From positions 35,545 through 99,544 of the forward strand of contig JBFMAT010000005.1 of NCBI GenBank assembly GCA_040755495.1: a stretch of 64,000 nt of DNA. Reading direction: 5' to 3'. Every line of letters starts with the position of its first letter. Position 1 is the stretch's first letter. Positions 4,624-49,642 of this stretch are shown here, in pieces. The notes under the pieces are model-generated. The model saw nothing but the letters and a program-made list of their open reading frames with translations, searched no databases and had not been told where the DNA came from. Origin of the DNA: Chloroflexota bacterium. GTDB taxonomy: Bacteria > Chloroflexota > Limnocylindria > Limnocylindrales > CSP1-4. The translations under genes were made by a program, and so were the position numbers.

Positions 4624-6453
<1,830 letters not shown>

Positions 6454-6455
6454 CC

Positions 6456-7100
6456 ATGCAACCCTCCGAGGTCCGAGGCGACGCTCCTGCGAGCCATCGG
6501 CCCGAGGATGACGCGCCCAGGAGCCATCGGCCCGAGGCTGACCCCGTCATCCCGCCTGGCACGGTGCCGCCGGGCACCACGGAGCTGGGCATCGACATCA
6601 TCAAGGTGGACCGGATCCGGGCCACGATGGCGCGCTTCGGCGAGCGGTTCAGCAAGCGGGTCCTGACCGCCGGCGAGCGACGCTACGTCCGCGACCGGCC
6701 GGAGACGTTCGCCGGCCGATGGGCGGCCAAGGAGGCCGTGTCCAAGGTCCTGGGCCTCGGGGTCCGCGGCATCGGCTGGACGGAAATCGAGATCGAGCGC
6801 CTGCCCACCGGCCAGCCGTCGGTGCGCCTCCACGGCCGCGCCGCCCAGCGCGCCGAGCAGCTGGGGATGGCGCGGATCGCGGTCTCGATCAGCCACGAAT
6901 CGGAGTACGCGGTGGCGGTGGCGTTCGGCGTCCGGACCGCCGGCGGGCGCTACGTCTTCCCGCTCGACATCGACGCCCGCCTGGACGACCGGGAGCGCCA
7001 GCTGATGGCGCGGTTCGAGCGCATGCGGGAGCTCCACGAGGCGACCCGGGCGATGGCCGCCGAGGTCGAGACCCGCGGCGGGGCGGACGGCGATGGCTGA
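6456..7100 (+). CDS. acpS: Holo-ACP synthase with N- and C-terminal extensions
   Basis: GIDII, FAGRWAAKEAVSKVLG and VSISHE motifs. Confidence 0.92.
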   Translation: MQPSEVRGDAPASHRPEDDAPRSHRPEADPVIPPGTVPPGTTELGIDIIKVDRIRATMARFGERFSKRVLTAGERRYVRDRPETFAGRWAAKEAVSKVLGLGVRGIGWTEIEIERLPTGQPSVRLHGRAAQRAEQLGMARIAVSISHESEYAVAVAFGVRTAGGRYVFPLDIDARLDDRERQLMARFERMRELHEATRAMAAEVETRGGADGDG

Positions 7101-10119: not shown

Positions 10120-10406
10120 GCTTCCCCATGGAACCGCTCGACGAGCGGCGCGAGGCGCTCGTCGAGGCGGTCGCGCGCGAGATCCGGCTGCGTGGCCTGA
10201 CGGGTCCTGCCGTCCACTTCCTCGAGGCGAGCCGGCCGTACCGGCCGCTCGGCGCCCCGGCCATGCTGTTCTTCGATCCCGTGCTCCGCGACCTGTTCGG
10301 CGGGGAGCTGCCGTCGGCCAGCGAGCTGCTGCGCGACGACCTGGGGATCGAGGCGCTGATCGACCGCCTCGAGGAGCTCGACGACTCGGACGGCTGGGAC
10401 GCCTAG
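10116..10406 (+). CDS. Small hypothetical protein
   Basis: ATGA-coupled to the macro-domain gene; typical GC3 codon usage. Confidence 0.7.
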   Translation: MSFPMEPLDERREALVEAVAREIRLRGLTGPAVHFLEASRPYRPLGAPAMLFFDPVLRDLFGGELPSASELLRDDLGIEALIDRLEELDDSDGWDA

Positions 10407-10478: not shown

Positions 10479-12089
10479 GTGAGCAGCGAACCCCGGGCCT
10501 TCGCCACGGTCGATCAGGGCACGGCCACCGTCGCCGTCTCGCTGCTGGGTCGCTTGGACGGGCGCTGGCGACTGCTGGGATCCACCGCCGCGCCGGCCAG
10601 CGTCCCGGCCGACGCGCTGCTCCACCGGCTCCGGGCGCGCCTCGACGCCGCCGATCCCGGCCTCGCGGCAGGCGTGGGCCTCGCCGCAGCCGAGGCCGTC
10701 GCGGACCTGCCGCGGGTCGAGTCCCGCACGACCCCGCCCCCGGTCCTCGTGGTGGTGGCGGCCACCGAGCGCGTCGTGCGGCCGCTGGCGGCCGCGGCCG
10801 CGACGGCCGGCTGGCGCGTCCGCGCCATGGCCCTCGAGGGCGCCGAGATCCTGTCCATCGCGTCGGCGCTCGCGGACCCGTCGGTGACCGCGGTGCTGGC
10901 CGGTGCCTCGGACCCGCCGGGCGCGGACGAGCGGCCGCTGGTCGGCGAGCTCGCCGCCCTGGCCGCGGCGGCGACCCAGCGACGGCCGGACCTGGTCCTC
11001 GTGCTCGCCGGCGGCATGTCGGACGCCGTGAACCGGACCGGCCTGCCGGTCGCGCACGACCGGCCCGGGGCCACGCTGCTCGCGCCGGCGGTGGCGACGG
11101 CGGACGGCGCTCGCCTCCGCGAGCTCCTCGACGGTGTTCGCGGCGGGGCGTCGGACGGCCGGCGAGCCCTGGCCACGTCGACGGCCACGCTGGCCGAGGT
11201 GCTCCGCCGGCGGATCGAGGTCGTCGAGGTCGGCCAGTCGGCGGGTGCGCGGGTCGCGGCCGCGTGGGCGCCCGGGGCCCCGGCGGTGTCCGTGACCTGG
11301 GCGACCGTCGCCGGCGCCGCGCTCATCCCGCCGGGCGCCGACGACACCGTCGTGGACGAGATCGCGGGCTGGCTCGCGGCACCCCTCGACCGGCTGCGCC
11401 TGCGGGACCGGCTGCGCGAGCTCGCGGTGGCACCGTGGGGCGACGCCACCGGCGAGGGCGCCCAGGTCAGGCTCGCCGCCGCCCGGGCCGCGGTGGCCCG
11501 GCTCGCCGGGGCGACGCCGGCCTTCGACGCCCTGCCGGCCCCCGACCTCGTGGTGGCCGCGGGCGGGGCCTGGTCGGTCGCCCCGGGGCCGGCAGTCGCG
11601 CTCGCGCTGGCCGACGTGCTGCGCCGGCCGGGCGTTCGCGCGCTCGGGCTGGACCACGCGAGCCTGCTGGGGCCGCTGGGCACGATCGAGGACGAGGCCG
11701 AGCGGCGGCGCGTCGTCGCGGACCTGCGCGACGAGCTGCTGCTGCCGCTGGGCAGCGTGCTGATGCCCGGCGCGCTCCGGGCCGGGCACTCGGCCGGCCG
11801 ACTCGGCATCGTGGCCGCGGACGGTCCCGTGGAGCTCGACCTCGTCCCCGGCGGGCTGGAGCTCGTGGACCTGCCGCCGGGCAGCCGGGCCATCGTGGAC
11901 GTGCGCTTCCGCGACACGGTTGACCTCGGGCTGCGCGGGCGGCAGTTCGCGCTCGAGGTCGCCGGCGGCCTCGGCGGGCTGCTCGTCGACCTGCGGGGCA
12001 TCCCGATGCGCCTGCCCGACCGCCTCGAGCGGCGGCGCGAGCTGCTGGCCGCGTGGCAGGGGGCGCTTTGGACGGGGGTCGACGCGTGA
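10479..12089 (+). CDS. Glutamate-mutase-L (GlmL/MutL)-like, actin-fold protein
   Basis: N-terminal VDQGTATV (ASKHA-like phosphate loop), EVVEVGQS, DLVVAAGG and C-terminal GGLGGLLVDLRGIP, which resemble the GlmL-like family. Confidence 0.65.
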   Translation: MSSEPRAFATVDQGTATVAVSLLGRLDGRWRLLGSTAAPASVPADALLHRLRARLDAADPGLAAGVGLAAAEAVADLPRVESRTTPPPVLVVVAATERVVRPLAAAAATAGWRVRAMALEGAEILSIASALADPSVTAVLAGASDPPGADERPLVGELAALAAAATQRRPDLVLVLAGGMSDAVNRTGLPVAHDRPGATLLAPAVATADGARLRELLDGVRGGASDGRRALATSTATLAEVLRRRIEVVEVGQSAGARVAAAWAPGAPAVSVTWATVAGAALIPPGADDTVVDEIAGWLAAPLDRLRLRDRLRELAVAPWGDATGEGAQVRLAAARAAVARLAGATPAFDALPAPDLVVAAGGAWSVAPGPAVALALADVLRRPGVRALGLDHASLLGPLGTIEDEAERRRVVADLRDELLLPLGSVLMPGALRAGHSAGRLGIVAADGPVELDLVPGGLELVDLPPGSRAIVDVRFRDTVDLGLRGRQFALEVAGGLGGLLVDLRGIPMRLPDRLERRRELLAAWQGALWTGVDA

Positions 12090-36254: not shown

Positions 36255-37790
36255 TCAGCCGGTGGTCGCGGCCGCCTTCGGCTCCCGGACCGCCTTCGCG
36301 CTCACTGCGGGCTCCTCCGGAGGCGGCGGCCAGACGCCGTTGAGCCACGAGTCGATCGAGCGCGCGGCACGCTTGCCGTCGCCCATGGCGAGGATCACCG
36401 TGGCCGCGCCGCGGACGATGTCGCCGCCCGCGAACACGCCCGGCATGCTGGTCATCCCGTACTCGTCGGTGACCATGTAGCCCCACTCGTTGACCTCGAG
36501 CTCGGGCGCGCTGCCGGTGAGCAGCGGGTTGGCCTTGGTGCCGATGGCCACGACGACGAGGTCGCAGTCGATGACGAACTCGGAGCCCGCGATGGGCTTC
36601 GGGCGTCGGCGGCCGCTCGCGTCGGGCTCGCCCAGCTCCATGCGCTGGACCCGCAGGCCGGTGACCCAGCGGTTCTCGTCGGCCAGCACCTCGACCGGGG
36701 CCGCCAGCAGCTCGAACCGGACGCCCTCCTGTTCGGCGTGGTGGACCTCCTCGGCACGGGCCGGCAGCTCGTCGCGCGAGCGGCGGTAGACGATTGTCGC
36801 CTCCGACGCCCCGAGGCGGCGCGCCGTCCGGACCGAGTCCATCGCGACGTTGCCGCCGCCCACCACGACCACTCGCTGGCCGTGGAGGATGGGCGTCGCG
36901 GACTCGGGGTTCCAGGCACCCATGAGGTTGACGCGGGTGAGGTACTCGTTGGCCGAGTAGACGCCCTTGAAGTTCTCCCCCGGGACGTTCATGAACACCG
37001 GCAGTCCCGCGCCGACGGCCAGGAACAGGGCATCGAACTCCTCGCGCAGCTCGGGGACCGTGTAGGTCCGGCCGATGATCGCGTCGAGCTCGATCTTGAC
37101 GCCCTCGGACACCAGGCGGTCGACCTCGGACTGGACGATGTCCTTGGGCAGCCGGAACTCCGGGATGCCGTAGATCAGGACGCCGCCGGGCGCGTGGAAC
37201 GCCTCGAACACCGTGACGTCGTGGCCCTTCCGGGCGAGCTCGCCGGCGGCCGTCAGCCCGGCCGGCCCGGAACCCACGATGCCGATCCTGCGGCCGGTCA
37301 GGGGCTGCCGGAGGTGCGGCACGGCGCCCGGGTTGTCCATCGCCCAGTCCGCGACGTAGCGCTCGAGGTAGCCGATCGCGACGGGGTTGCCCTTGCGGGC
37401 GCGGACGCACACGCCCTCGCACTGCGTCTCCTGGGGGCAGACGCGCCCGGTGACGCAGGGCAGCGCGTTGTCGCCCAGCAGGCTCTCGGCCGCACCCGCC
37501 ATGTCGCCGTCGCGCAGGTGGGCGATGAAGTTCGGGATGTTGACCCGGACCGGGCAGCCGTCCACGCAGAACGGCTTGGGGCACTGCAGGCAGCGCTCGG
37601 CCTCCAGCATCGCGAGCTGGAAGGTGAGCCCGAGGTTGACCTCGCGGAAGTTGTGGGCGCGGATGTCGCCGTCCTGCTCGGGCATGGCGACCCGGTCGAT
37701 CGCCATCCGCTCCTTGTTGGTCAGCGGCACCTTCGGCTGGGCGGGCTCGACGGGCTCGTCGGCCGGCGCCGGGGACGCGGGCTCGGTCAT
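36255..37790 (-). CDS. NfnB/SudA-like NADPH-dependent oxidoreductase (GltD-like)
   Basis: EAERCLQC...C...CP, TGRVCPQETQCEG, GSGPAGL, GGGNVAMD, GVFAGGD; no gltB nearby. Confidence 0.9.
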   Translation of the reverse strand: MTEPASPAPADEPVEPAQPKVPLTNKERMAIDRVAMPEQDGDIRAHNFREVNLGLTFQLAMLEAERCLQCPKPFCVDGCPVRVNIPNFIAHLRDGDMAGAAESLLGDNALPCVTGRVCPQETQCEGVCVRARKGNPVAIGYLERYVADWAMDNPGAVPHLRQPLTGRRIGIVGSGPAGLTAAGELARKGHDVTVFEAFHAPGGVLIYGIPEFRLPKDIVQSEVDRLVSEGVKIELDAIIGRTYTVPELREEFDALFLAVGAGLPVFMNVPGENFKGVYSANEYLTRVNLMGAWNPESATPILHGQRVVVVGGGNVAMDSVRTARRLGASEATIVYRRSRDELPARAEEVHHAEQEGVRFELLAAPVEVLADENRWVTGLRVQRMELGEPDASGRRRPKPIAGSEFVIDCDLVVVAIGTKANPLLTGSAPELEVNEWGYMVTDEYGMTSMPGVFAGGDIVRGAATVILAMGDGKRAARSIDSWLNGVWPPPPEEPAVSAKAVREPKAAATTG

Positions 37791-38626
37791 GCCTTCACCT
37801 CGGTCGTCGCGCAGGCGCCCAGCTTGTCCAGGGCCTGCGCTTCGAAGCTTCGATAGGTCGTCAGGCGGTCCGCCAGCTCCGCGAAGTTGACCTGGTGGCC
37901 GTCGAACTCCGGGCCGTCCACGCAGGCGTACTTCGTCTCGCCACCGATCGTGACTCGGCAGCCGCCGCACATCCCCGTGCCGTCGACCATGATCGCGTTG
38001 AGCGACACGGTCGTGGGCACGGCGTAGGGGAGCGTGAGGTTCGACACCGCCTTCATCATCGGCACCGGACCCACCGCGTACACGGCGTCTACCCCGCCGG
38101 CGTCGAGCAGGTCCTTGAGCGCCTCGGTCACGAAGCCCGGGCGGCCGTAGGACCCGTCGTCCGTGCAGGCGACCACGTCGCCGCAGGTCCGCAGCTCGTC
38201 CTCGAGGATCACCCACTCCCTCGACCGGCCGCCGATCACGCTGGTGACCTTCACGCCGCGGCGCGCCAGCTCTCGGGCGATCGGCAGGATCACTGCCGTG
38301 CCCACGCCACCGCCGACGCACACCGCGTGGCCGTGCTCGATGAGCTCCGTGGCCTGGCCCAGCGGCCCCGCGACGTCCTGGATCGCCTCGCCAGCCTGGA
38401 GCGCGCACAGCTCGGTGGTGCTGGCGCCGATCGCCTGGATCATCAGCGTGATGGTGCCGGCGGCGGGGTCCGTGTCCGCGATGGTCAGCGGGATCCGCTC
38501 CGCGCCCGGTCCCTTGCGCACGATGACGAACTGGCCCGGCTTGCGGACCTTGGCGATGCGGGCCGCCTCGACCACGAGGCGGACGACGTTGGGGGAGAGC
38601 TGCTCACGCTCGACGACCGGATGCAT
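37787..38626 (-). CDS. NfnA/SudB-like FAD/[2Fe-2S] subunit
   Basis: KPGQFVIV, ERIPLTIAD, GGGVGTA, MVDGTGMCGGCRV...CVDGPEFDG. Confidence 0.92.
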   Translation of the reverse strand: MHPVVEREQLSPNVVRLVVEAARIAKVRKPGQFVIVRKGPGAERIPLTIADTDPAAGTITLMIQAIGASTTELCALQAGEAIQDVAGPLGQATELIEHGHAVCVGGGVGTAVILPIARELARRGVKVTSVIGGRSREWVILEDELRTCGDVVACTDDGSYGRPGFVTEALKDLLDAGGVDAVYAVGPVPMMKAVSNLTLPYAVPTTVSLNAIMVDGTGMCGGCRVTIGGETKYACVDGPEFDGHQVNFAELADRLTTYRSFEAQALDKLGACATTEVKA

Positions 38627-38922: not shown

Positions 38923-39043
38923 CGTGCGTACGGCGCAGGGAGTCCGTGCCGCCGAGTCGTCGCCGTGCGTGGCACGCACGGCCGGAGCCGATTCCGGGTG
39001 CCAAGTGCCATTCGCGGCGCCGTCATCGTGCGTGGGACGCACG
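38923..39043. repeat. Second cluster of CGTGCG-N5-CGCACG palindromes (three copies)
   Basis: Copies at 38923 (one mismatch), 38964 and 39027; spacings 41/63; linker similar to that at 24093-24115. Confidence 0.8.
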
Positions 39044-39274
39044 GCCGGCGCGCGACCAGCCGGGGCCGGCGCGCGTGCTCGCTCAGCCGGCCGGGGGCGA
39101 CCGCCGGGGCCTTGCCCTTCGGCCAGTAGCCACGAAGGTGTCTCATGCTATCTCCTTGTGTGCCAACTGAACGGGAACCGCAGGCTTGGTGCCCGCCGAG
39201 CCGCTGCGCGACAATCGAAAGACCGCACGAAGACCGCAGTCGCGGGCCCCGAGCGGTCGAGCAGGAGAACCGCT

Positions 39275-39547
39275 GTGGCAGACCGATCCGATGTCGTTCG
39301 GCTGCCTGCTGTCGGCCCGCTTGTTGACGACGTTGGCTACTTCGAGTCCCTGGTACAAGATCTGCGCTTCGTTGAAACAGACCGAGGTGATACCCCATTC
39401 GTTCACGCGGCGACAGGTTGTTCGTCCGGGTGCGGCTGCAGTAGTGCGTCTCGTATCCTCACGACAGCACATCCATCAGCCAGACCTTGCCGGGTCGCGG
39501 CAGACACTGTGCAGGATGTGCTGCGCAGGGAGGAGAGGGCACGGTAG
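39275..39547 (+). CDS. Unannotated 90-aa ORF, first gene of the defence operon
   Basis: AGGAG at 39263, GTG at 39275; its TAG overlaps the helicase GTG (TAGTG); contains CSSGCGC. Confidence 0.6.
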   Translation: MADRSDVVRLPAVGPLVDDVGYFESLVQDLRFVETDRGDTPFVHAATGCSSGCGCSSASRILTTAHPSARPCRVAADTVQDVLRREERAR

Positions 39548-42500
39548 TGCAACCGGGGGACATCGCTTCAGGGGGTGGGCGGCCGCGCTCGTTGACGCCC
39601 GCTGAGGCGTATGAGCACATCAAGGAGTCCGTAGCCCAATACCTCGAGACCCAGTACCGGATCTCGAACCGGTTGGTGACGGAGGAGCGGGCTCGGTTGC
39701 TGCGTGAGCCAGGGACAATTGCTCAGGTCCCGTTCATCGAGGCGACGCCTGCATTTCCGACCGCGCACAAGCTGGCTGAGCTTGAGCGCCTCTATCCCGA
39801 GAGTGTTCCGGCTGGAATAGCCGAGCTAGTTCAGCACGGGGTGCCAGTCGACCGCTTCGCCCTGTACCAGCATCAGGAGGCAGCACTCTTGGCCGCAAGC
39901 GGGTCACGGCCCAACCTGCTTGTAGCCACGGGAACGGGCTCGGGCAAGACGGAGGCCTTCCTGCTGCCGATCCTGGCCGACATCCTCCGCGAGGCATCCG
40001 ATTGGCCCGCGCCAATAGCCGTTGAGCGCAGAGGGCAGTACGACCCGCGCCAGGGCTGGCTGAGCTCACGGCGGCATGAGGCGAGGCCAGCCGCGGTTCG
40101 CGCGATTGTGCTGTACCCGATGAACGCCCTGGTAAACGACCAGTTGTCGCGGCTGCGCCGCATCCTCGCTCGAGGTGAGTCTCCGGACTGGCAGCGTCGC
40201 AACCTCAACGGCAACGTCGTTCGTTTCGGCATGTACACGGGGCTGAGCCGACCTACAGGCCCATGGACGGTGAAGTGGCGCCGCGACAAGTACTTTCAGT
40301 ACGAAACCAAGGTCGATGCCGAGTGGCAGGCGCTCAGCGAGAGATTGAGGGCGACAGGCGGGTGGCCGCGGCCGGACGGCCCCGAGATGATCTGCCGCTG
40401 GGACATGCAACTCGCGCCGCCGGACATTCTGGTGACCAACTACTCGATGCTCGAGTACATGATGATTCGACCGATCGAGTCTGGCGTGTTCACCACCACA
40501 GCTGATTGGCTGGCGAGCGACCGCGCACATCACCGCCTGACATTGGTGGTCGATGAGGCTCACACCTACACGGGCGCCAAGGGAACCGAGGTCGCTCACC
40601 TCATCCGGCGTCTTCGTGAGCGTCTCGGGATTACCTCGAGCCCGCATCAGCTCCGGACAATTGCCACCACGGCATCAGTGCCAGACCACCCAGACGCCGA
40701 CGAGTCGCTGCTGCGCTTCGTTGGCGATCTCTCAGGAGCACGTTCCGACTCCTTCAGCCTCATCAAGCTTCCTCCAGCCGACCCGCTGCCGGATCCGGGG
40801 CCGGCGACTGGCACTGAAATCGATGCGTGGGCTCGATTCCACGAATCCTTCGACCTCGTGGAGCCAATGCCCGCAGTCGAAAGGCTCGTGCGCGACCTTG
40901 ACCTCGGGGAGGCTGACCGGACGCTCGATCCTCAGGTAGCCCTGTACAACGCCCTCGAGCGGGATCAGCGGATCAAGTGGTTCCGATCCCGAACCGCTCG
41001 TCGCGCGACTTTGCTCAGCGACCTCAGCCTCGAGGCCTTTGGCGATACCCTCAGCGAGGCGCAGCGGGATGCAGCGGCGGCGGGTGTGCTGGCAGCTGGG
41101 AGCTACGCAAGGGCTTCCGATCTCGCCGATACGCCGCCCCTCCTCTCGGTGAGAGTTCACGCGTTCTTTCGTGGTATCGCTGGCATCTGGGCGTGCCTCA
41201 ACCCCAACTGTCGTTTTGCCGAGCCCGCGGGTACGCGTCCCGTCGGAAGAATCTTCACGGAGCGCCGCGTGTGGTGCGACTGCGGCGCGAGAGTCCTAGA
41301 GGCATTCTCCTGCCGCAAATGTGGCCTGCTCTTCCTTGGTGGCATACCAGACTCTCAACAGGGCAGCCTGTGGCCTTGGACTGACGACTTCACAGGAGAC
41401 GGCCAGGACCTTGGCGCTTACGCCATCTTCGGCGTCGAAAGACCCCACCCGTCGGAGATGCCCTCATTCCGCTCGATCCTAACGACGCTTCCATCGCACC
41501 CCGGCGAGATGGACGTGCGGGAGGTATGGGAGGTCGCGCCTGCAACCGACTCGAACGGGCGGCAACTCAGCCCCTTCCCGTCACAGTGCCCCCGTTGCCG
41601 CAACTATCGCCAGTTTGGGGTGCAAGGGCCCAACGTGCGTGAGGTGGTCGAGCCCCTTCGAACAAAGGGACCACGAACCTTCTCGATCATCGTGGAGGAT
41701 GGGTTCAGGGTGCAGCCTCGATCGGCAGACGAGGGCTCGCCAAACCATGGGAGGAAGGCGCTGCTCTTCAGCGACTCGCGACCTGAGGCCGCGACGCTCG
41801 CTGCAGACCTGCGGCGCGACCATCGGAACGATCTCTTCCGCCAGCTGCTCTACCGAGCGTTGTACGTCTGTGCTCTGTGCGACGGCACCGGCTCGCTAGA
41901 ACAGGTGGAGGGGTACGTCATTGGACAAGCCACCTCGCCTGTTATCGGGCCCTGCAACGCATGCGACGGTTCAGGGATCCTTCCGTCGCCAGCGGCGCTG
42001 CAGTACGCCGAGCTCCGGGCGCGAGTCACGAGACTCCAGCTGGAGCGGGGGATCAATCCGAGCGGGGACGACATCCGGGACTTCTTCGCGCAGGCCGAGG
42101 CCGGCAATCCGGCGATTCAGCAGGCAACGCAGGTCTGGTTCGACGTGAACCTGAGACGGGAGATCTCGGAGGAGGAGTTCTCGCTTGGTCCCTTAGGGCT
42201 CGCTGAGTGGACGATCCAGCTGCCGGAGACGACCGGTGCTCTTGCACCGCTAACCGAGCCCGAAACCAAGCAGTTCATTCGCATCATCGCCCGGATCCTG
42301 GCGACCGAGGACATCCTGCTGCCGCCCGAGCCGGTCGAGCCGTGGGGCTGGCCAAGGGACATCGTTCGGGAGTGGGAGCGACAGGTCATCTACCCCGGCA
42401 ACGCCAAGCAGGGTGCTGCAATCCCATACAACTTGGAGCCCCGCAGAAAACTCGGGAGGTACGTCCGGGCTGTCGTCGCTGCACTCGTCGCCGAAGGGCG

Positions 42501-45000
42501 ACTGCCGAACCAAGCCGCCGGCGACCAGTGGCTCCGCGATCAACACTGGCCGTTGTGGGCCGCGCTGCGCGGGTTCGGCGTGCTCCAGCCGGCCGGAGCC
42601 AAGATCAATGGCCAGACTCCGCACGGCATCCGGATCGACTCCTTCGCTCTGTCACCGATCGGACCACTCGTCTGGCGCTGTGGCGAATGCGGGTATGTGA
42701 GTCCCGAGGCATTGCTCGATGTGTGCCCGCGCTGTGGTCAGCAAACAGCGCGGCTGCAGCCCGGCGACGACATCCGCAACTTCTATCGGCGCAGCGTTCT
42801 AGCAGCCCGGCCCGGTCCGCCATTCGATGACCCCCACCCGCTCCGCTCGATCGAGCACAGCGCTCAGATCCCCGGGGCCGAAGCTCGTGACCTAGAGCGG
42901 TGGTTCCAGGACTTCTTCCGGGATGGCGAGAATGCGCTCGACCACCGTATCGACGTGCTCTCCGTGACCACGACTATGGAGATGGGCATAGACATCGGCA
43001 GTCTGCTCACTGTTGGGCTTCGGAACGTTCCGCCAACCGTGGCCAACTACCAGCAGCGGGCTGGCCGCGCCGGGCGCCGCGGAAGTTCGATTGCCACCGT
43101 GCTGTCGTTCGCCCAGCAACGAAGCCACGACCAGTACTACTTCAGCCGCCCGCCCGAGATAGTCAGCCGGCCGCCCCGTGTTCCTGTCCTTTACCTCGCG
43201 AATTCGGTGATCGCGAGACGGCACGTGCGAGCGCTCGCACTTGAGCAGTTCTTCCGATCGTTCCTGCCAGGCGGTGGGACGGCATCCCTCTTCTCGGCGT
43301 GGGGCAAGGTCGGCGACTTCATCACGCGGCAGGGTGTGCCATCGCTGATCAGGTTCCTGGACGCTAACTTCGACTGGATGCTCGAACGTGGGGTATCCGT
43401 AGTCGACGCGACCTTTGGGGGGGTCGTGGCGGACTGGCTCAAGGAACTGCCCGGCGAGGTCGGAATCGCGATCGGCGCGACACCGTCCAGCGATGAGCTT
43501 CTGGATGCGCTATTGCAGTCGGGCCTCCTCCCGAAGTACGCATTCCCAGTGGACGTTGTCAGCTTGTCGATGCCGAGCTTCGGCGCATCGGACGATGACG
43601 ACTTTCCCAGCTCGGACACGATGCAGCGCGACCTCAAGATCGCCCTGTCGGAATACGCACCCGGGGCCGAGGTCATCAAGGGGACGTTTCCCGAGACGTT
43701 CGTGTACAAGAGCGCCGCATTGCACGATCCGTACGGTGTTGTTGGGGACTTCCGGCCCACCGGCTCACTGCTCGAGTGTCAGGATTGCCAAGCGATCTCG
43801 CTCGCAGGCGCGGATGCCCAAGGCGGTGTATGCGGCGAATGCGGTGGACTAAGCGTGCTGCCACTGCCATACCTCATCCCCAAGGGCTTCAGTGTCGATG
43901 CAGCGCTGCCAGGCGCAGGCCGCCAGCGGTACGACGGCGGCGGACGAGAGCGCAGTGGCGAGGTGCTTCCTGCGCGCCTGCTTCTCGGGGGAAGCTCATT
44001 CGCCCTTGGCGACCCTACTTCCTTCGCTCCCGCTCTCTACACATACGTCCGCAGCGGCCAGTTGTTCATGTGCAACAAGGGGCCGGATAGAGACTTCCCG
44101 GGCTTCCTTGTTTGTCCTCACTGCGGCCGCTGGCTTGACGCCGATAACCTCGGGACGCACACGTTCCCCGCTGACGTCCCCCCGCACTGGGGCCAGAGGC
44201 GCGGCCCGCGCGCCGGTTCGATGTGCCCGAACACCACCGACTTCGCGAATCAGCCGATCCTCGGGCACACCTTCCACTCGGAGGTAATCCTCCTTGGGGT
44301 GGATCTCCCGACGGATCTGGATGCCCCTTTCGCGGCACCTTCGGGACGGGCCGTCTGGTATTCCTTCGGAACCCTGGTCGCCAACGCGGCCGCTCGGGTA
44401 CTCCAGGTTGATCCCGGCGAGCTCCAAGTCGGAGTGCGCCCGGTGAGGCGTCCGGGTGGTCGTCTGCACGGCGAGGTCTTCATCTACGACGACGTCCCGG
44501 GAGGCGCTGGCTACGCACGCGGGGTCGGGCACAACCTCGATGAAGTTCTCCGTGTTGCGCGCGATCTCGCCCATGCATGTCCCAACCAGGACTGCCCTGG
44601 AGCGTGCTATCACTGCCTTCTCGAGTACGGGAACCAGAGACAGCACCCCCTCCTCGACAGACGCCTCGGCGGAGCGGTCCTGGACTTTCTCATCGAGGGC
44701 GTCAGGCCGGTGGTGCCCGAGGAGGTGGAAGACCGGGCAGCTGCGTCGTTGGCAGCGTACGCTCGGACTAGCTGGCGGGTGTCCGGGCCGGTCGCAGCGG
44801 GGACCACGCGTTTCGCCCTTGTGCTCGAGGACTCGGCGGGTGGTCGTATCGGACTCTGGGTGATTGATCCTCTCTCGGCTCGGCCCTCAGCGGCCGAGCG
44901 GCAACAGCTACTTGCCGCCTCGGGGATGCGTCCCGCTGTCCAGACGACGTTTGACCTTGACCGACGCCCGTTCTGGGTGATGAACAACCTGATCACATGA
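39547..45000 (+). CDS. DEAD/DEAH-box helicase with multiple Zn fingers and C-terminal DUF1998 (DruE-like)
   Basis: LYQHQ, ATGTGSGKTE, LYPMNALVNDQ, PPDILVTNYSML, DEAH, EHSAQ, TTTMEMGIDIG, NYQQRAGRAGRR; DUF1998 YDDVPGGAGY...CPGACYHCLLEYGNQ. Confidence 0.92.
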   Translation: MQPGDIASGGGRPRSLTPAEAYEHIKESVAQYLETQYRISNRLVTEERARLLREPGTIAQVPFIEATPAFPTAHKLAELERLYPESVPAGIAELVQHGVPVDRFALYQHQEAALLAASGSRPNLLVATGTGSGKTEAFLLPILADILREASDWPAPIAVERRGQYDPRQGWLSSRRHEARPAAVRAIVLYPMNALVNDQLSRLRRILARGESPDWQRRNLNGNVVRFGMYTGLSRPTGPWTVKWRRDKYFQYETKVDAEWQALSERLRATGGWPRPDGPEMICRWDMQLAPPDILVTNYSMLEYMMIRPIESGVFTTTADWLASDRAHHRLTLVVDEAHTYTGAKGTEVAHLIRRLRERLGITSSPHQLRTIATTASVPDHPDADESLLRFVGDLSGARSDSFSLIKLPPADPLPDPGPATGTEIDAWARFHESFDLVEPMPAVERLVRDLDLGEADRTLDPQVALYNALERDQRIKWFRSRTARRATLLSDLSLEAFGDTLSEAQRDAAAAGVLAAGSYARASDLADTPPLLSVRVHAFFRGIAGIWACLNPNCRFAEPAGTRPVGRIFTERRVWCDCGARVLEAFSCRKCGLLFLGGIPDSQQGSLWPWTDDFTGDGQDLGAYAIFGVERPHPSEMPSFRSILTTLPSHPGEMDVREVWEVAPATDSNGRQLSPFPSQCPRCRNYRQFGVQGPNVREVVEPLRTKGPRTFSIIVEDGFRVQPRSADEGSPNHGRKALLFSDSRPEAATLAADLRRDHRNDLFRQLLYRALYVCALCDGTGSLEQVEGYVIGQATSPVIGPCNACDGSGILPSPAALQYAELRARVTRLQLERGINPSGDDIRDFFAQAEAGNPAIQQATQVWFDVNLRREISEEEFSLGPLGLAEWTIQLPETTGALAPLTEPETKQFIRIIARILATEDILLPPEPVEPWGWPRDIVREWERQVIYPGNAKQGAAIPYNLEPRRKLGRYVRAVVAALVAEGRLPNQAAGDQWLRDQHWPLWAALRGFGVLQPAGAKINGQTPHGIRIDSFALSPIGPLVWRCGECGYVSPEALLDVCPRCGQQTARLQPGDDIRNFYRRSVLAARPGPPFDDPHPLRSIEHSAQIPGAEARDLERWFQDFFRDGENALDHRIDVLSVTTTMEMGIDIGSLLTVGLRNVPPTVANYQQRAGRAGRRGSSIATVLSFAQQRSHDQYYFSRPPEIVSRPPRVPVLYLANSVIARRHVRALALEQFFRSFLPGGGTASLFSAWGKVGDFITRQGVPSLIRFLDANFDWMLERGVSVVDATFGGVVADWLKELPGEVGIAIGATPSSDELLDALLQSGLLPKYAFPVDVVSLSMPSFGASDDDDFPSSDTMQRDLKIALSEYAPGAEVIKGTFPETFVYKSAALHDPYGVVGDFRPTGSLLECQDCQAISLAGADAQGGVCGECGGLSVLPLPYLIPKGFSVDAALPGAGRQRYDGGGRERSGEVLPARLLLGGSSFALGDPTSFAPALYTYVRSGQLFMCNKGPDRDFPGFLVCPHCGRWLDADNLGTHTFPADVPPHWGQRRGPRAGSMCPNTTDFANQPILGHTFHSEVILLGVDLPTDLDAPFAAPSGRAVWYSFGTLVANAAARVLQVDPGELQVGVRPVRRPGGRLHGEVFIYDDVPGGAGYARGVGHNLDEVLRVARDLAHACPNQDCPGACYHCLLEYGNQRQHPLLDRRLGGAVLDFLIEGVRPVVPEEVEDRAAASLAAYARTSWRVSGPVAAGTTRFALVLEDSAGGRIGLWVIDPLSARPSAAERQQLLAASGMRPAVQTTFDLDRRPFWVMNNLIT

Positions 45001-46130
45001 GCGCGGCCACAGACTGGACGGTCAAGCGCGCAGAGTGGGCCCCTCGGTCGCGGCCATCCCCGCCACTTGGGGTGACATCAGCGGCCGTCGCTCGGTCATG
45101 CGGGCTGCGCCTGCTCTTCGAGCGATCGGACGCATATGCGCGGCGCCTGTCCTTTGCGGCCCGCATAGGGACGGCATTCCACCGGACGATGGAACGTCTC
45201 TCCGAGGAAGGTGTGCCCGCGAATGCGGCCGAGGCTGCCTTGATCGCACAGGTGGTATTTGACGACGAGCTCGCGGCACAAGCTCTGGCTGCCGACACGG
45301 CGTTTCGAGAAGGATCACTGCCCCGGGATGAGCGGAGGGTGCAACTGGCGAAGGAGGCGGCCGTCGCTGAGGCGGTTCGCATGGCACGCAATCCGCAGAC
45401 CTCGACGCCAACCGAAACGGCAGCGGGCGGCGTACCAGGGGCTGGGGATGGTACCTGGGTCGAGGTACCGGTCGCCTCAGCTGACGGGTGGCTCAGAGGG
45501 CGCATCGACCGGATAGAGCGACATGCCGGCAGGCTTCGACTCGTGGACTACAAGTCCACTCTTCGTGCGGACTTGCCCGAACGGTACGAGCGCCAAGTCA
45601 AGGTGTACGCAGCTATGTGGGAGCAGACCTTTGGCTTCTGGCCGAACGAGGCCGCGATCGTCTACCCCCTCCTCGGCACCGAAGCCACGCTTGAGCTCAA
45701 TCCGGAGGAGTGCACCGAACTCGCAAATGACGACTCCGCGGTGCTTCGTGAGGTCTGCACGCGTGGAGCACCTCGAGATCACGCGCGGCCCGGCGATGTG
45801 TGCAAGGCATGCGAGTTCCGGCCATGGTGCGAGCCGTTCTGGGCGGCTCAGGTAAGCGACGCAAATACGGAGGCAGACGTGCTGGAGCGCGCCTACCTCG
45901 GCTTCGAAGGGACTGTCGTTGAGGTGCTAGACGGCCCAGGCTTCGTGCGTGGCAGCGTCACGTGGCGTGGACGGCCTGTCAGCTTCATCGCCGATCCCGA
46001 ACGGTTTCCGCAACTTCGGTCTGCTCGTCCGGGAATGAACCTCCGATTCCTGGAGTGGCGGCTCAGGGGTCAACGGCACGCTCCACAGGCGTTTGCGTCA
46101 GACACCGGGGAACTGTTCCTTGTCGACTGA
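44997..46130 (+). CDS. PD-(D/E)XK nuclease, Cas4/RecB-like
   Basis: GTAFH, LRGRIDRI...VDYKS, QVKVYA, C-x2-C-x5-C (CKACEFRPWC) plus an N-terminal Cys; ATGA overlap with the helicase. Confidence 0.88.
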   Translation: MSAATDWTVKRAEWAPRSRPSPPLGVTSAAVARSCGLRLLFERSDAYARRLSFAARIGTAFHRTMERLSEEGVPANAAEAALIAQVVFDDELAAQALAADTAFREGSLPRDERRVQLAKEAAVAEAVRMARNPQTSTPTETAAGGVPGAGDGTWVEVPVASADGWLRGRIDRIERHAGRLRLVDYKSTLRADLPERYERQVKVYAAMWEQTFGFWPNEAAIVYPLLGTEATLELNPEECTELANDDSAVLREVCTRGAPRDHARPGDVCKACEFRPWCEPFWAAQVSDANTEADVLERAYLGFEGTVVEVLDGPGFVRGSVTWRGRPVSFIADPERFPQLRSARPGMNLRFLEWRLRGQRHAPQAFASDTGELFLVD

Positions 46131-46134
46131 TGAG

Positions 46135-47499
46135 GTGCCGCCGACCGCCGCCACGGGCCGCACCCGTGAGCTCGTCGACTCGATCCGCACCGCGATGGAC
46201 GAGCACCTCGCGGGCCTGGGGCTGTCCGGGGCGACCGGATTGCAGTCGACGAAGGAGGCTGTGCGGCAGAGCCACGCGGCCCAACGCCAAGAGACCCTCG
46301 CACGGGAGAAGCCGGCGCTCCAAGCCCGCTGGCGCGAACTCATGTCCTGGTTCGCCAGCGGCAGCGATGTCAACCCATCCACCGTGGCGCCTGCTCTGGT
46401 CCAGGTATCGAGTGGCGACGAGACCTCGCTGGTCTTCCGCCTGGCGACGTTGCTCTGGTCCGTCCCGGTCTCGCGCGGGTATGGGCGCAGGATGCGGTAC
46501 CTCGTGGTCGATGAAAGCAATGGGCACCTGATCGGTGTGCTCGCGCTCGGCGACCCGGTGTTCAACCTCCGGGTCCGAGACACTCACATTGGCTGGACTG
46601 TCGATGAACGGCGGGACCGACTGGTCAACATCCTCGACGCGTTCGTCGTGGGAGCAGTGCCTCCATACACTCAGCTCATGGGCGGGAAGCTTGTGGCGAG
46701 TCTGCTCGCGTCGCGAGAGGTCTCGTCGGACTTTGATCGACGATACGGCGAGAGCGTGGGGATCATCAGCGGGAAGGCCAAGACAGCGAGGCTGGCGCTC
46801 GTCACGGTGACGAGTGCGCTCGGTCGATCGTCGATCTACAACCGATTGCGGCTTCCGGGTCGCGTGGAGCTGCAATCCGTCGGCCTTACCGAGGGCTGGG
46901 GCCACTTTCACGTCCCGGAAGCGGTGTTTGCGGACATGCGACGCCTGCTGGAGCTCGAGGGACACCCGTACGCGTCAGGACACCAATACGGAACGGGCCC
47001 GAACTGGCGGCTTAGGGTGATCCGGGCATCGCTCATCAGAGTCGGGTTGGACCCAGCGTTGCTCCGGCACGGAATAGCTCGCGAAGTGTTCGTCATGCCA
47101 CTTGCGCAGAATTGGCGGCGCTACCTCAAGGCGATTGACGACCGGGCGGTCATCGACCGGCCATCCGCGCGCGACATTGGGCTGGCGGCAAGGACTCGGT
47201 GGATTGAGCCTCGCGCGGCTCGAACCCCCGAAGCGCTGCGCTGGTCCCGCGACGACCTTGCCGGTGACTTTGAGTCCATGTTCGCAAGTCCCGAGCAGGG
47301 CTCGGGCGAGCAGGTCGCGGCCACCATCGACGCAACGGCTGAGCTCTCGCAGAACCCCTCGCCGAACTCGCCAACTGTACAAGGGCCATCACCGCTGCAT
47401 GCGGAACTCATACCCGAAGAACCCATGGGGCCGGGGGCGACCGGATCCAGCCTGCCGGAGGTGGCCTGGATCCCTCGCATCGGGACGAGCACAGGATGA
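46135..47499 (+). CDS. DUF4338 / Druantia DruA-like protein
   Basis: WSVPVSRGYGRRMRYLV, IGVLALGDPVFNLRVRD.HIGW, GAVPPYTQLMGGKLVA, TSALGRSSIYNR; GTG 46135 (alternative TTG 46093). Confidence 0.8.
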   Translation: MPPTAATGRTRELVDSIRTAMDEHLAGLGLSGATGLQSTKEAVRQSHAAQRQETLAREKPALQARWRELMSWFASGSDVNPSTVAPALVQVSSGDETSLVFRLATLLWSVPVSRGYGRRMRYLVVDESNGHLIGVLALGDPVFNLRVRDTHIGWTVDERRDRLVNILDAFVVGAVPPYTQLMGGKLVASLLASREVSSDFDRRYGESVGIISGKAKTARLALVTVTSALGRSSIYNRLRLPGRVELQSVGLTEGWGHFHVPEAVFADMRRLLELEGHPYASGHQYGTGPNWRLRVIRASLIRVGLDPALLRHGIAREVFVMPLAQNWRRYLKAIDDRAVIDRPSARDIGLAARTRWIEPRAARTPEALRWSRDDLAGDFESMFASPEQGSGEQVAATIDATAELSQNPSPNSPTVQGPSPLHAELIPEEPMGPGATGSSLPEVAWIPRIGTSTG

Positions 47500-47511
47500 G
47501 AGACCGGCGGC

Positions 47512-48534
47512 ATGCCTGACGTACGTGTTGCCCTGGACACCAATGTCTGGGCGTTTCTCACTGATCGAGACGAGGCGCAGAGCTTCGCGCGCTGGTGTCG
47601 GTCGCGCGGCATCACTGTTGTTGTCCCGCCTGCAACCCTGCTCGAGATCTCTCGCACGAAGGATCCCATCCGCCGGGCGCGAATCCTCGCGGCCGCCACA
47701 ACTCCGCCTCGGATCCACCCGCGTACCGAGGCCGCCGAGGAGTCCGCTGAGTTCATCGAGGAGATCCGGCGACTGCGGCCGTCGTGGATCCGGGAGAAGC
47801 CCATCCACGTCGCTGACTTCGAGAGCCTGGATAGGCTCTGGACGCGAAGAGTCCCACGCTTCGCGAAGTACAAGCCGGATGTCCTCGGCGAGATGACTCG
47901 CACGATGGAGTCAGGGCGCCTCGAGTATGAGCAGCAAGCGGTGGTGGACTCCCAACGCTCGCGCCAAGACGCACTCCGCGCGCAAGGACGCGAGGTGAAC
48001 CTCGGCAACCTACACGACACGTGGGTTTCGCCTGCCGACGGATCCGACCCGGCCTATTGGACGCCCTTGCCTCTGAGCGGCCGCATCGAGGAGTGGCGAT
48101 TCCAGAATGCCGTAGTCTTCTGGTCTACCCTCCAGCAGCCGGCGACATACGGCAGGACGCTCGGCCGTGACACGACCCGAGCGGACTGGATTGAGCCATT
48201 CGTCGACCTCGGAGCGCTACGTCGAGACCACGCCGACTTCAACCGGCTCTGGTTCGAGGAAATCGCTCCCGAACGCGTGCTGCGCAACTGGCTCCGATGG
48301 GCGCTGCAGCTCGCCCAAGTTAGGTTCCGCCTGGGTCGCGGGAACGCGACCGATGAGCAGCAGGCCGCATACCTACCCGACTGCGACGTATACGCGACCG
48401 CCGACCACCGGTTCCACCTCGCACTCGAAGCGGTATGTCGGCAGGCGCCGAGGTCGGTTGCCAAGGTGGTCTATGTCGATCGGAATGCAAGCTCGGCTGT
48501 TGCGGCCATCGAAGTCGCGATCAGTGCGGTTTGA
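47512..48534 (+). CDS. PIN-like domain protein with a large insertion
   Basis: N-terminal VALDTNVW and TLLEI; C-terminal DEQQAAYLPDCDVYATADHRF. Confidence 0.65.
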   Translation: MPDVRVALDTNVWAFLTDRDEAQSFARWCRSRGITVVVPPATLLEISRTKDPIRRARILAAATTPPRIHPRTEAAEESAEFIEEIRRLRPSWIREKPIHVADFESLDRLWTRRVPRFAKYKPDVLGEMTRTMESGRLEYEQQAVVDSQRSRQDALRAQGREVNLGNLHDTWVSPADGSDPAYWTPLPLSGRIEEWRFQNAVVFWSTLQQPATYGRTLGRDTTRADWIEPFVDLGALRRDHADFNRLWFEEIAPERVLRNWLRWALQLAQVRFRLGRGNATDEQQAAYLPDCDVYATADHRFHLALEAVCRQAPRSVAKVVYVDRNASSAVAAIEVAISAV

Positions 48535-48655
48535 CTGTCGCCAACCCCGAAGACATGAGGGGCTGGCGCATGGCGATGCCATACTGGGGTCACGCCAACC
48601 CACGATGATCGGCGGGTGACACCGACGGTGCTCGGCACTGCTTGCGGCTCACCGG

Positions 48656-48760
48656 ACCTATCCAGAGTGCCCGAGAGTCCCGGCTCGATGACGGCACGGC
48701 AACCCGCGCACGTCCCAGGTGCCGAAGGTGCCCCTTCCGGGATCGATAGGTGAGGGATCC
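48656..48760 (+). ncRNA. SAM-I clan riboswitch (likely SAM-I/IV-like variant)
   Basis: P1 ACCTATC/GATAGGT, ATCCAGAG, P2 with GAGAG...CTCGATGA kink-turn-like motif, GGCAACC...AAGGTGCC P3; P3 loop GTCCC is complementary to downstream GGGAT near the RBS. Confidence 0.8.
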
Positions 48761-48762
48761 CG

Positions 48763-48846
48763 ATGACCAGCGAGACCGCCGACCTCGTCGACGCACCCCC
48801 TCGGCTGCTCCAGCTCCGCCGCACAAACGCCCGCACTAAGCGGTGA
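48763..48846 (+). pseudogene. 27-codon ORF under the SAM riboswitch, possibly a truncated gene remnant
   Basis: ATG 12 nt after P1; MTSETADLVDAPPRLLQLRRTNARTKR*; runs into the 3' end of the convergent fnr-like gene. Confidence 0.35.
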
Positions 48847-49642
48847 TTGTGTTCGGTTTCCCCTTCGGCCAGTACAGCTCCTTCTTGACGTGGAACTCGG
48901 GGAAGCCGCGGTCCATCAGCGCCCGCTCCACGTTGAGGATCATGTCCGGGTTGCCGCAGATGTAGACGACGGTCCGGTCGGGCCGCAGCCCGTGCTCGCG
49001 ACAGACGTCCATGATCACCTGCTCGGCGCGCCCCACGCGCCCCGCCCAGCCGGCGTTGCGCGGGTCCGCGGGCCGCGAGATCGTGGGCACGTAGCGCAAC
49101 CGGTAGGCGGGGTCCTGCTGCCACGCCTCCAGCTCCCGGCGGTAGCCCAGCTCGTCGGCGAACGAGCAGCCGTTGAGCAGCACCGTCTTGCGCGGCTTCC
49201 CCTGGGCCATCGTCTCGCGGATCATCGAGATGAACGGCGCGATGCCGGTCCCGGTCGACACGTACAGGTGGGTCCGGTCGTCGTCGGGCTCGAGCATGAA
49301 CTTGCCCTTGGGTCCGATCATCCGCATCCGGTGCCCCACCGGCAGCCGCCACAGCGCGGTCGTGAACCGGATCACCGGCACGTGGCGCACGAACAGCTCG
49401 TAGCCCTCGGTGTTCGCGACGGACGGCGCGGACGCCACGGAGTACGGCCGTTGGAGCATCTTGCCGTCGGTGACGACGCCGGTGGTCATGTACTGCCCGG
49501 GCTCGAACGGCGTGGCCGCGCCGTCGAACTTGACCCAGAAGCAGGCGAGGTCGTGGGTCAGGTCCTCGCGCCGGACGAGGGTCGCGTTGTACGACTCGGC
49601 ATCGGCCTCGATGACCCGTGGGTCGTCGTGGTGATTGGTCAC
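48836..49642 (-). CDS. Ferredoxin-NADP+ reductase (Fpr-like)
   Basis: FEPGQY, RPYSVAS, GPKGKF, STGTGIAPFISM, VYICGNPDMI. Confidence 0.92.
   Translation of the reverse strand: MTNHHDDPRVIEADAESYNATLVRREDLTHDLACFWVKFDGAATPFEPGQYMTTGVVTDGKMLQRPYSVASAPSVANTEGYELFVRHVPVIRFTTALWRLPVGHRMRMIGPKGKFMLEPDDDRTHLYVSTGTGIAPFISMIRETMAQGKPRKTVLLNGCSFADELGYRRELEAWQQDPAYRLRYVPTISRPADPRNAGWAGRVGRAEQVIMDVCREHGLRPDRTVVYICGNPDMILNVERALMDRGFPEFHVKKELYWPKGKPNTITA

Follow-up and report, generated by a model that had tools for sequence, protein, structure and literature searches.

Riboswitches of the S-box type, which bind S-adenosylmethionine (SAM), usually precede methionine, SAM or sulfur genes. Examples of the SAM-I family are the yitJ, metI, and metK leaders of Bacillus subtilis and the metF leader of Thermoanaerobacter tengcongensis. 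In the cryo-electron microscopy structure of a SAM-IV riboswitch, a P5 hairpin lies between helix P1 and the 3′ strand of the second pseudoknot (PK-2), while SAM-I/IV riboswitches have an undivided P2 and lack the first pseudoknot, PK-1 (PMC6890682). Riboswitches in antisense position have also been described, namely the S-box 3′ of ubiG-mccBA in Clostridium acetobutylicum and the B12 riboswitch/AspocR of Listeria monocytogenes (PMC9943018). Here we describe an RNA of the SAM-I sequence family in a 64,000-nt stretch of DNA (hereafter the window) from a Chloroflexota bacterium (assembly GCA_040755495.1, contig JBFMAT010000005.1, positions 35,545 to 99,544, forward strand). The RNA stands at the right end of a Druantia defence island that has entered the 3′ end of fnr, a gene for a ferredoxin-NADP reductase-like protein, and the only open reading frame (ORF) behind it has 27 codons. 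We lean towards the reading that an intact translational OFF switch is stranded here with the stump of a gene and has no meaningful target.

A cmscan analysis of the whole window gave a single above-threshold match, RF00162 (SAM-I), at 48655-48752 on the plus strand, with 52.4 bits against a gathering score of 44.4 (E = 3.5e-9) and spanning the full model (1-108). A permissive covariance scan of 48450-49000 revealed nothing credible beyond this match. A first-pass annotation of the locus, made from the sequence, had named RF00162, RF00634, and RF01725 as the models to be searched. Only the first of them matches the locus: RF01725 (SAM-I/IV) had no match at E ≤ 10 in the whole genome, and RF00634 (SAM-IV) had none at the locus and three weak ones elsewhere in the genome (E ≥ 0.12). 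The match is also the only one to SAM-I in the 3.74-Mb host assembly, and covariance scans of this genome returned no other SAM-I, SAM-I/IV, or SAM-IV aptamer. Across the genus, SAM-I aptamers are patchily distributed (16 of 41 genomes).

For comparison, the RNA was aligned by homology with 41 further aptamers from the genus, the family, the class, and metagenomes. It aligned with all of them and contains the SAM-I core (AUC..AGAG..GAG..GCAACC..GGUGC..GAU). The core elements quoted in the first-pass annotation, P1 and the GGCAACC motif at 48698-704, are present, and the RNA agrees with 24 aptamers of the genus at all 28 columns in which these do not vary. We conclude that it is a genuine riboswitch that belongs to the SAM-I family by sequence and departs from the standard in its outer architecture; judging from its sequence, it should sense SAM.

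Within the alignment, P2 is split into P2a and P2b by an internal loop resembling a kink-turn (K-turn), and the P2 loop forms PK-1 with a strand behind P3 (coordinates in Table 1). In the 24-sequence alignment, 98.2% of the PK-1 cells pair and four of the five base pairs show changes on both sides. This pairing level was reached by none of 500 shuffles, and slid controls gave at most 61%. Most copies carry CCCGG/CCGGG, 11 carry CCUGG/CCAGG, and others have UACAG/CUGUA or CUCGG/CCGAG. PK-1 is thus present. P4 is absent, and so is the four-way junction of SAM-I. The cmscan alignment (48727-48744) does build a 3-bp P4, which we rejected as a real helix: only 51% of its cells pair, no better than in shuffles, and its 3′ strand (CCGGG, 48737-41) is in fact the PK-1 partner of the P2 loop. 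This strand ends only 3 nt before the 3′ strand of P1. The same automatic alignment picks the first GGUGCC as the 3′ strand of P3; according to the homology alignment, the conserved strand is the second copy (48727-32), which gives a normal P3. Since cmscan mis-draws both P4 and P3 at this locus, automatic structure lines for P4-less SAM-I relatives are not trustworthy.

A second pseudoknot, PK-2, probably connects the P3 loop with the ribosome-binding site (RBS), as in SAM-IV. The complementarity between GUCCC in the P3 loop and GGGAU at the RBS, to which the first-pass annotation had drawn attention, exists, and complementarity of the same kind is found in homologues. The P3 loop of most relatives in the class that includes the window copy (class B, see below) carries a CCUC-like run complementary to the 4-9 nt directly before the start codon, often including the AUG, and the equivalent loop-tail complementarity amounts to 4-9 bp in 22 homologues. 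Matched loops and tails scored higher than mismatched ones (mean 14.7 vs 13.2, permutation p = 0.004), a difference that is only indicative because the sequences are interrelated. The structural part of the first-pass annotation, a SAM-I core with little or no P4 and a potential SAM-IV-like pseudoknot at the RBS, is therefore supported. Because the RNA keeps the K-turn of SAM-I and lacks the P5 hairpin of SAM-IV, it matches none of the three named families exactly.

The minimum-free-energy fold contains an alternative 7-bp hairpin that takes up the PK-1 strand. The 3′ strand of P1 and the Shine-Dalgarno (SD) sequence are then looped out, and the AUG lies just 3′ of the stem. Equivalent helices (GGUGC/GCACC) are found in the closest relatives (G282, L078, and G372). 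From the folding model, this hairpin is likely to be the SAM-free (ON) conformer, and we infer the following switching logic. With SAM bound, P1 (ending at 48752), PK-1, and PK-2 would enclose the SD sequence (48752-55) and turn translation OFF. In the SAM-free RNA, the 7-bp hairpin would borrow the PK-1 strand, freeing both the SD sequence and the AUG, and translation would be ON. A promoter and terminator scan of 48300-49400 detected neither a terminator-like nor a sigma-70-like site, so that control would be translational.

The ORF behind the switch encodes a peptide with an acidic N-terminal half (N-terminus MTSETADLVDAPP) and a basic tail, RRTNARTKR. As the first-pass annotation had stated, it ends inside the 3′ end of the convergent fnr-like gene: the ORF occupies 48763-48846 and the fnr stop codon begins at 48836, so that the frames overlap by 11 nt and the stop codons are 8 nt apart. 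The orphan status of the riboswitch was likewise borne out, as no methionine, SAM or sulfur gene follows and the 27-codon ORF stands in its place. An imperfect hairpin covers both stop codons. With a predicted energy of about −16 to −19 kcal/mol (z −0.7) it is unexceptional, and it has no U-tract; it could act as a two-way terminator according to the fold, and the consensus terminator scan was empty.

The position of the riboswitch is explained by an insertion. The 14-mer CCCTTCGGCCAGTA, part of the fnr coding sequence shortly before its end (codons for YWPKG), has exactly two copies in the window (none expected), and these flank an island with a GC content of 0.62-0.67. The GC content at third codon positions (GC3) is about 0.75 in the island vs 0.97-0.99 in the flanking core genes. 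Left of the left repeat, on the minus strand, lies the displaced original fnr tail, YWPKGKAPAVAPGRL with its stop codon (ending ..KGKAPAVAPGRL and stop). Further left follow a normal intergenic region and nfnA; this flank is colinear with the 3′ end of fnr and the intergenic region of relatives. At the right repeat, the fnr body continues into a tail that the island supplies, KPNTITA followed by a stop codon. A search for Fnr relatives returned 494 proteins, mostly from metagenome-assembled genomes of Chloroflexota/Candidatus Limnocylindria, the closest being 94-95% identical. The two closest relatives have an empty site and almost the same original tail, and the order fnr-nfnA-nfnB is also that of more distant species. 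In close and distant relatives alike, fnr and nfnA are roughly 190-400 nt apart, and no riboswitch lies between them. The donor of the new fnr tail was not found, as no tail or 3′ flank of any relative matched it. The uninterrupted site in relatives together with the displaced tail demonstrates that the island entered the 3′ end of fnr recently and site-specifically, and that nothing was deleted from the host.

The riboswitch unit lies inside this insert and reads outward, with the end of its ORF about 14-15 nt from the right repeat. One of the readings offered by the first-pass annotation was that the RNA, at the edge of the island, is what remains of a met gene that was deleted. If a methionine or sulfur gene had once stood behind the riboswitch at this chromosomal site, the location at the island edge would be accounted for, and metK and a ThrC-like gene are indeed found behind related riboswitches of the genus. 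In relatives both close and distant, however, fnr is followed by nfnA with no riboswitch in between, and the RNA itself lies between the direct repeats in DNA of lower GC content. A lost host gene is thus already contradicted and retains next to no probability. What stands of the relic interpretation is its mobile form: in our best reading, the RNA is the remnant of a riboswitch-plus-small-gene unit that was carried by the element.

Table 1. Features of the riboswitch, the island, and the host gene in the window (window coordinates).
Feature	Position	Strand	Basis
SAM-I-type aptamer	48655..48752	+	RF00162, 52.4 bits; alignment to 41 aptamers
P1	GACCTATC 48655-62 / GATAGGTG 48745-52	+	sequence
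P2a	48667-71/48693-97	+	homology alignment
P2b	48675-77/48684-86	+	homology alignment
K-turn-like internal loop	CGA 48672-74 opposite GAUGAC 48687-92	+	aligned to model K-turn columns; judged on sequence alone
P3, plus distal stem	48698-704/48727-32; loop GUCCCAG 48712-18	+	homology alignment
PK-1	P2 loop CCCGG 48679-83 : CCGGG 48737-41	+	covariation
PK-2 (proposed)	P3 loop GUCCC 48712-16 : GGGAU 48754-58, overlapping SD GAGG 48752-55	+	comparison only
Alternative 7-bp hairpin, CGGGAUC/GAUCCCG	48738-44/48756-62	+	minimum-free-energy fold
27-codon ORF, MTSETADLVDAPPRLLQLRRTNARTKR and stop	48763..48846	+	SD GAGG 48752-55; ORF list
Imperfect hairpin over both stop codons (ORF 48844-46, fnr 48836-38)	48821..48852		fold
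GC-rich hairpin directly after the PIN-like stop codon	48537..48569	+	fold; start of 324-nt segment
Inserted island, ~9.75 kb, all genes on + strand	39129..48860	+	composition, repeats, empty sites
Left 14-nt direct repeat CCCTTCGGCCAGTA (attL core)	39115..39128	+	exact pattern
Right 14-nt direct repeat (attR core), inside fnr codons for YWPKG	48861..48874	+	exact pattern
fnr-like ferredoxin-NADP reductase, 268 amino acids, insertion host gene	48836..49642	-	Pfam FAD_binding_6, NAD_binding_1

According to Pfam and PADLOC, the island encodes, in this order, a 90-amino acid (aa) ORF, a DruE-like helicase, a DruK/Cas4-like nuclease, DruA, and a PIN-like protein, followed by the riboswitch unit. 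A Pfam scan of the ORFs of 39487-48534 revealed no recombinase or integrase. Several further observations concern the insertion site. Palindromes at 38923-39043 belong to the ordinary fnr-nfnA intergenic region and are also found in relatives. We discarded them as the landing site of the island, since the actual junction lies 72 nt further right, inside the fnr coding sequence. At the left end of the island (39129-39170, minus strand), a strong RBS and an ATG (AAGGAGATAGCATG) open an outward-directed frame, which runs through the repeat and on into the displaced tail of fnr (MRHLRGYWPKGKAPAVAPGRL and stop). The island also separates fnr (48836-49642, minus strand) from nfnA/nfnB (37790-38626, minus strand) by 9.7 kb of oppositely oriented DNA. 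As nfnA and nfnB follow fnr on the same strand in relatives, any co-transcription is broken here.

The riboswitch segment is apparently not part of the Druantia island proper. The nearest island known to us lies on an ENA metagenome contig (L046), which came up in a large protein search with the PIN-like protein; the PIN-like gene as a query had no match among the genome contigs. In L046, the PIN-like protein is 88% identical and the DNA 82-87% identical, and homology ends exactly at the PIN stop codon (48536). Beyond this point, L046 carries other genes, with a serine recombinase 4.6 kb on, and its contig has no SAM covariance match. The 324-nt riboswitch segment is absent from L046 and unique in the host genome. 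A search of 48537-48875 against phage and plasmid collections gave no match, and blastn with the locus found only the 3′ end of fnr at the genus level and only the aptamer at the class level. Public sequencing runs shared at most 0.17 of the sampled words of the stretch, probably from the conserved fnr part, and no RNA run was among them.

The 41 aligned relatives and the window copy fall into two classes, and the genes behind them bear on the nature of the 27-codon frame. Class A comprises seven copies from genus relatives (L022-L027 and L037) with a normal P4 (CAGG..CCUG) and an intrinsic terminator, upstream of a gene for a ThrC-like protein. This protein has an N-terminal Cys4 ribbon (..LRCRNCG..CxxCFGPLEV..) and may be a methionine enzyme of the phosphohomoserine type. 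In class B, which includes the window copy, only 3 nt separate the CCGGG strand from the 3′ strand of P1. Here metK follows once; otherwise the downstream genes are mostly small and unnamed, in addition to a MoxR-type AAA+ ATPase and an HDAC-like protein. The unnamed families comprise proteins of 132-134 aa (Cys-rich), 118-124 aa (zinc-ribbon-like), 67-80 aa, 94 aa, and roughly 250 aa (Cys-rich). Another family, with lengths of about 100-127 aa, has a match to phrog_27831, a phage family of unknown function (E 4.8e-13), and shares the motifs RQGDVLL...GE(A/V)TGHAH...HEEH. Its members stand repeatedly behind SAM-I switches, at L073 (G023:C16, switch 6052-6149), L070 (about 6541-6639, minus strand), L051, and L052. 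Altogether, the ORFs behind related aptamers encode about 67-480 aa.

A tandem unit recurs at five loci (L070 in G282, L071 in G372, L075, L078, and L088). It consists of a SAM-I switch, a 94-aa ORF (MIKLSLDVETPL...), a hairpin, a second SAM-I switch, and the 132-134-aa Cys-rich protein (..HPEPRPVPGAV..CxIPGCxHxPCPAKLRAWA..). No match to either protein was obtained in Pfam or PHROG. Such arrays adjoin tRNA genes, a truncated serine recombinase, or an ARPP-1 domain gene. At L071 (G372:C4:27000-41000), six riboswitches lie within 14 kb beside a tRNA and a truncated serine recombinase: SAM-I at 6303-6400 and 6741-6831, c-di-GMP-II-GCG at 10265 and 10907, and c-di-GMP-II-GAG at 11637 and 12605. 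Most of them precede ORFs without a Pfam match. In two metagenome copies (L079, 5006-5129, and L086, 575-698, both on the minus strand), the aptamer has kept its 3′ half and the start of the ORF behind it but has unrelated sequence in place of its 5′ half, which suggests recombination breakpoints within the conserved aptamer. The class-B lineage thus apparently heads small orphan genes with fast turnover in variable and apparently mobile regions of Candidatus Limnocylindria.

Truncation is common among these units. All four other frames below 60 codons behind related aptamers derive from longer genes by truncation: L074 (13 codons, with a degenerate aptamer), L079 (32 codons, with the aptamer 5′ half lost), L081 (a nonsense codon where its near-twin L087 has none), and G056 (a 50-aa cut version of the 67-80-aa family). 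In G372, family homology extends over about 36 residues only. The aptamer of L081 is intact, so an intact aptamer can persist before a dead gene. Because the other short frames are stumps and the riboswitch segment is a mosaic add-on at the end of the island, the 27-codon frame is, by analogy, most likely the stump of a small orphan gene that was cut when the island was assembled. The riboswitch arrived as the last 324 nt of the 9.75-kb island and stands outside the methionine regulon of the host.

Several points weigh against this reading. The aptamer is intact at every genus-invariant column. The SD sequence stands 7 nt before the AUG and, like this spacing and the ON-state hairpin, looks functional, and the 6-nt difference from the relatives (GAGGGAU-CCCGAU-GACC) improves the hairpin and introduces no defect. 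The codon bias of the ORF looks coding, with G or C at the third position of 23 of the 27 codons (GC3) vs 19 and 16 in the other two frames. A longer parent gene of the 27-aa frame was not found among the ORF families behind related riboswitches, and a tblastn comparison of 13 cassette proteins with 48740-48880 in all frames yielded no significant match. In local nucleotide alignments, the ORF shared one run of 14 of 15 nt with the 132-aa Cys-rich family (p about 0.03). We dropped this family as the parent, since the run also occurs by chance at the start of an unrelated gene following a tRNA. In a single sequence, a recent relic and a live small gene look the same.

The same features would fit a live micro-gene whose 27-residue peptide is made when SAM falls and serves the island or the cell. 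The aptamer, SD sequence, start codon, and ON-state hairpin are intact, the GC3 bias favors the coding frame, and a hairpin covers the ORF stop codon. We consider this explanation rather doubtful, however, because no second copy or homologue of the peptide was found (no exact match in a collection of 15 billion proteins), the other short frames behind related aptamers are truncations without exception, the segment is missing from the closest island, and the last 11 nt of the ORF overlap the island-supplied fnr tail. We therefore continue to favor the stranded switch with its gene stump.

The convergent arrangement also raises the question of antisense control, and a SAM-dependent antisense RNA into fnr had been among the proposals of the first-pass annotation. 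Transcription from upstream of the aptamer into fnr would lower fnr expression when SAM is low. The two stop codons lie close together, no canonical terminator separates the aptamer from fnr, and antisense-placed riboswitches have a published precedent and have been surveyed (PMC9943018). A translational platform without a SAM-dependent terminator, however, could affect the antisense transcript only indirectly via Rho, no promoter was recognized in the scan of 48300-49400, and Fnr has no evident link to SAM. Moreover, the arrangement came about with the recent insertion and is not present in relatives. Of the 8,039 SAM riboswitches surveyed, only 56 were antisense-placed, without enrichment (PMC9943018). 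We regard antisense control as improbable.

Even less probable is a leader that is active only in an excised circle. Joining of the two island ends would place the switch and its ORF about 100 nt ahead of the 90-aa ORF and of the DruE operon. The riboswitch shares its orientation (plus strand) with every gene of the island, and the ORF stop codon lies 14 nt before the repeat core. When read as joined sequence, the island ends give CCTTCGGCC-AGTA-GCCACGAAGG, an imperfect palindrome such as a recombinase site would be expected to have, and the arrangement resembles the outward-facing promoters of some integrative elements. On the other hand, Pfam detects no recombinase among the island ORFs, the related island has no riboswitch, and the left end has a promoter-like sequence of its own (TTGGTG-N18-GACAAT, from a reading of the sequence). 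The stranded switch thus remains our preferred explanation.

A bolder idea takes the P4-less double-pseudoknot variant of SAM-I and its interchangeable small orphan genes together as a mobile "SAM-depletion sensor" module, of which the window copy would still be live. If so, mobile elements or defence islands would switch on small effectors when cellular SAM collapses, triggered, for example, by a phage SAM-degrading enzyme that attacks methylation-based immunity, and the Druantia-island copy would yield a 27-aa basic-tailed peptide or an antisense RNA at low SAM. We consider this unlikely. Should the orphan genes matter, they would tie the level of methyl donors to mobile elements or defence, a connection so far unexplored. 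A literature search found no paper that connects SAM riboswitches with defence islands or with Limnocylindria.

For annotation, the locus carries a warning. An above-threshold riboswitch beside fnr would suggest SAM control of a redox gene, but the adjacency is accidental, and the RNA came as cargo with a defence island that was inserted recently. Beyond this locus of moderate interest, the pattern in Limnocylindria, SAM-I-sequence switches of SAM-IV-like layout that head small orphan genes on apparently mobile DNA, deserves attention. The lineage occurs mainly with fast-changing orphan genes beside variant c-di-GMP-II riboswitches and rarely before methionine genes: among the relatives, metK was found once, the ThrC-like gene in class A, and otherwise mostly small orphan genes.

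Compared with known systems, the island resembles other genomic islands that insert at the 3′ ends of genes. It shares with them the 14-nt repeat, the displaced tail, the new tail with its stop codon, the empty site in relatives, and the break in composition. It differs in that the window copy has no integrase or recombinase, whereas the related L046 has a serine recombinase downstream. With the known antisense riboswitches, the RNA shares the position at the 3′ end of a gene on which it converges. The known ones, however, control a terminator and have targets tied to their ligand. The window RNA lacks a terminator, converges on a gene without relation to SAM, and owes its geometry to the insertion.

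Among the SAM riboswitches, SAM-I/IV (RF01725) resembles the window RNA in combining a SAM-I-like binding core with different outer contacts, including a P3-loop pseudoknot (probable in the window RNA). The window RNA differs from it by the split into P2a and P2b, the covarying PK-1, and the lack of a model match in the genome. SAM-IV (RF00634) is closer in layout: both have PK-1 and lack P4, and the PK-2 of SAM-IV, from the P3 loop to the 3′ tail, has a proposed counterpart in the window RNA, which would give both a double pseudoknot. SAM-IV likewise acts on translation in high-GC bacteria, as we infer for the window RNA. The latter, however, has no SAM-IV covariance match, keeps a 6-nt SAM-I-type turn instead of the 4-nt turn of SAM-IV, and lacks the P5 hairpin: the 3′ strand of P1 ends at 48752 and the PK-2 strand begins at 48754, so that the two are 1-2 nt apart. 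With SAM-I, finally, the RNA has in common the P1-P2-P3 core, the K-turn-type P2 loop, and PK-1 between the P2 loop and J3/4, and within the same genus this family precedes metK and the ThrC-like gene. It departs from SAM-I in that P4 is missing and the junction closes 3 nt after the PK-1 strand, in its probable P3-loop pseudoknot onto the RBS with predicted translational control and no terminator, and in its setting in a mobile defence island before a 27-codon frame unrelated to methionine or SAM. The RNA thus appears as a SAM-I sequence built on a SAM-IV-like plan, with a K-turn, PK-1, and probably PK-2 but neither P4 nor P5, and the P4-less set would be a useful natural intermediate from which to learn how outer scaffolds are exchanged within the SAM clan.

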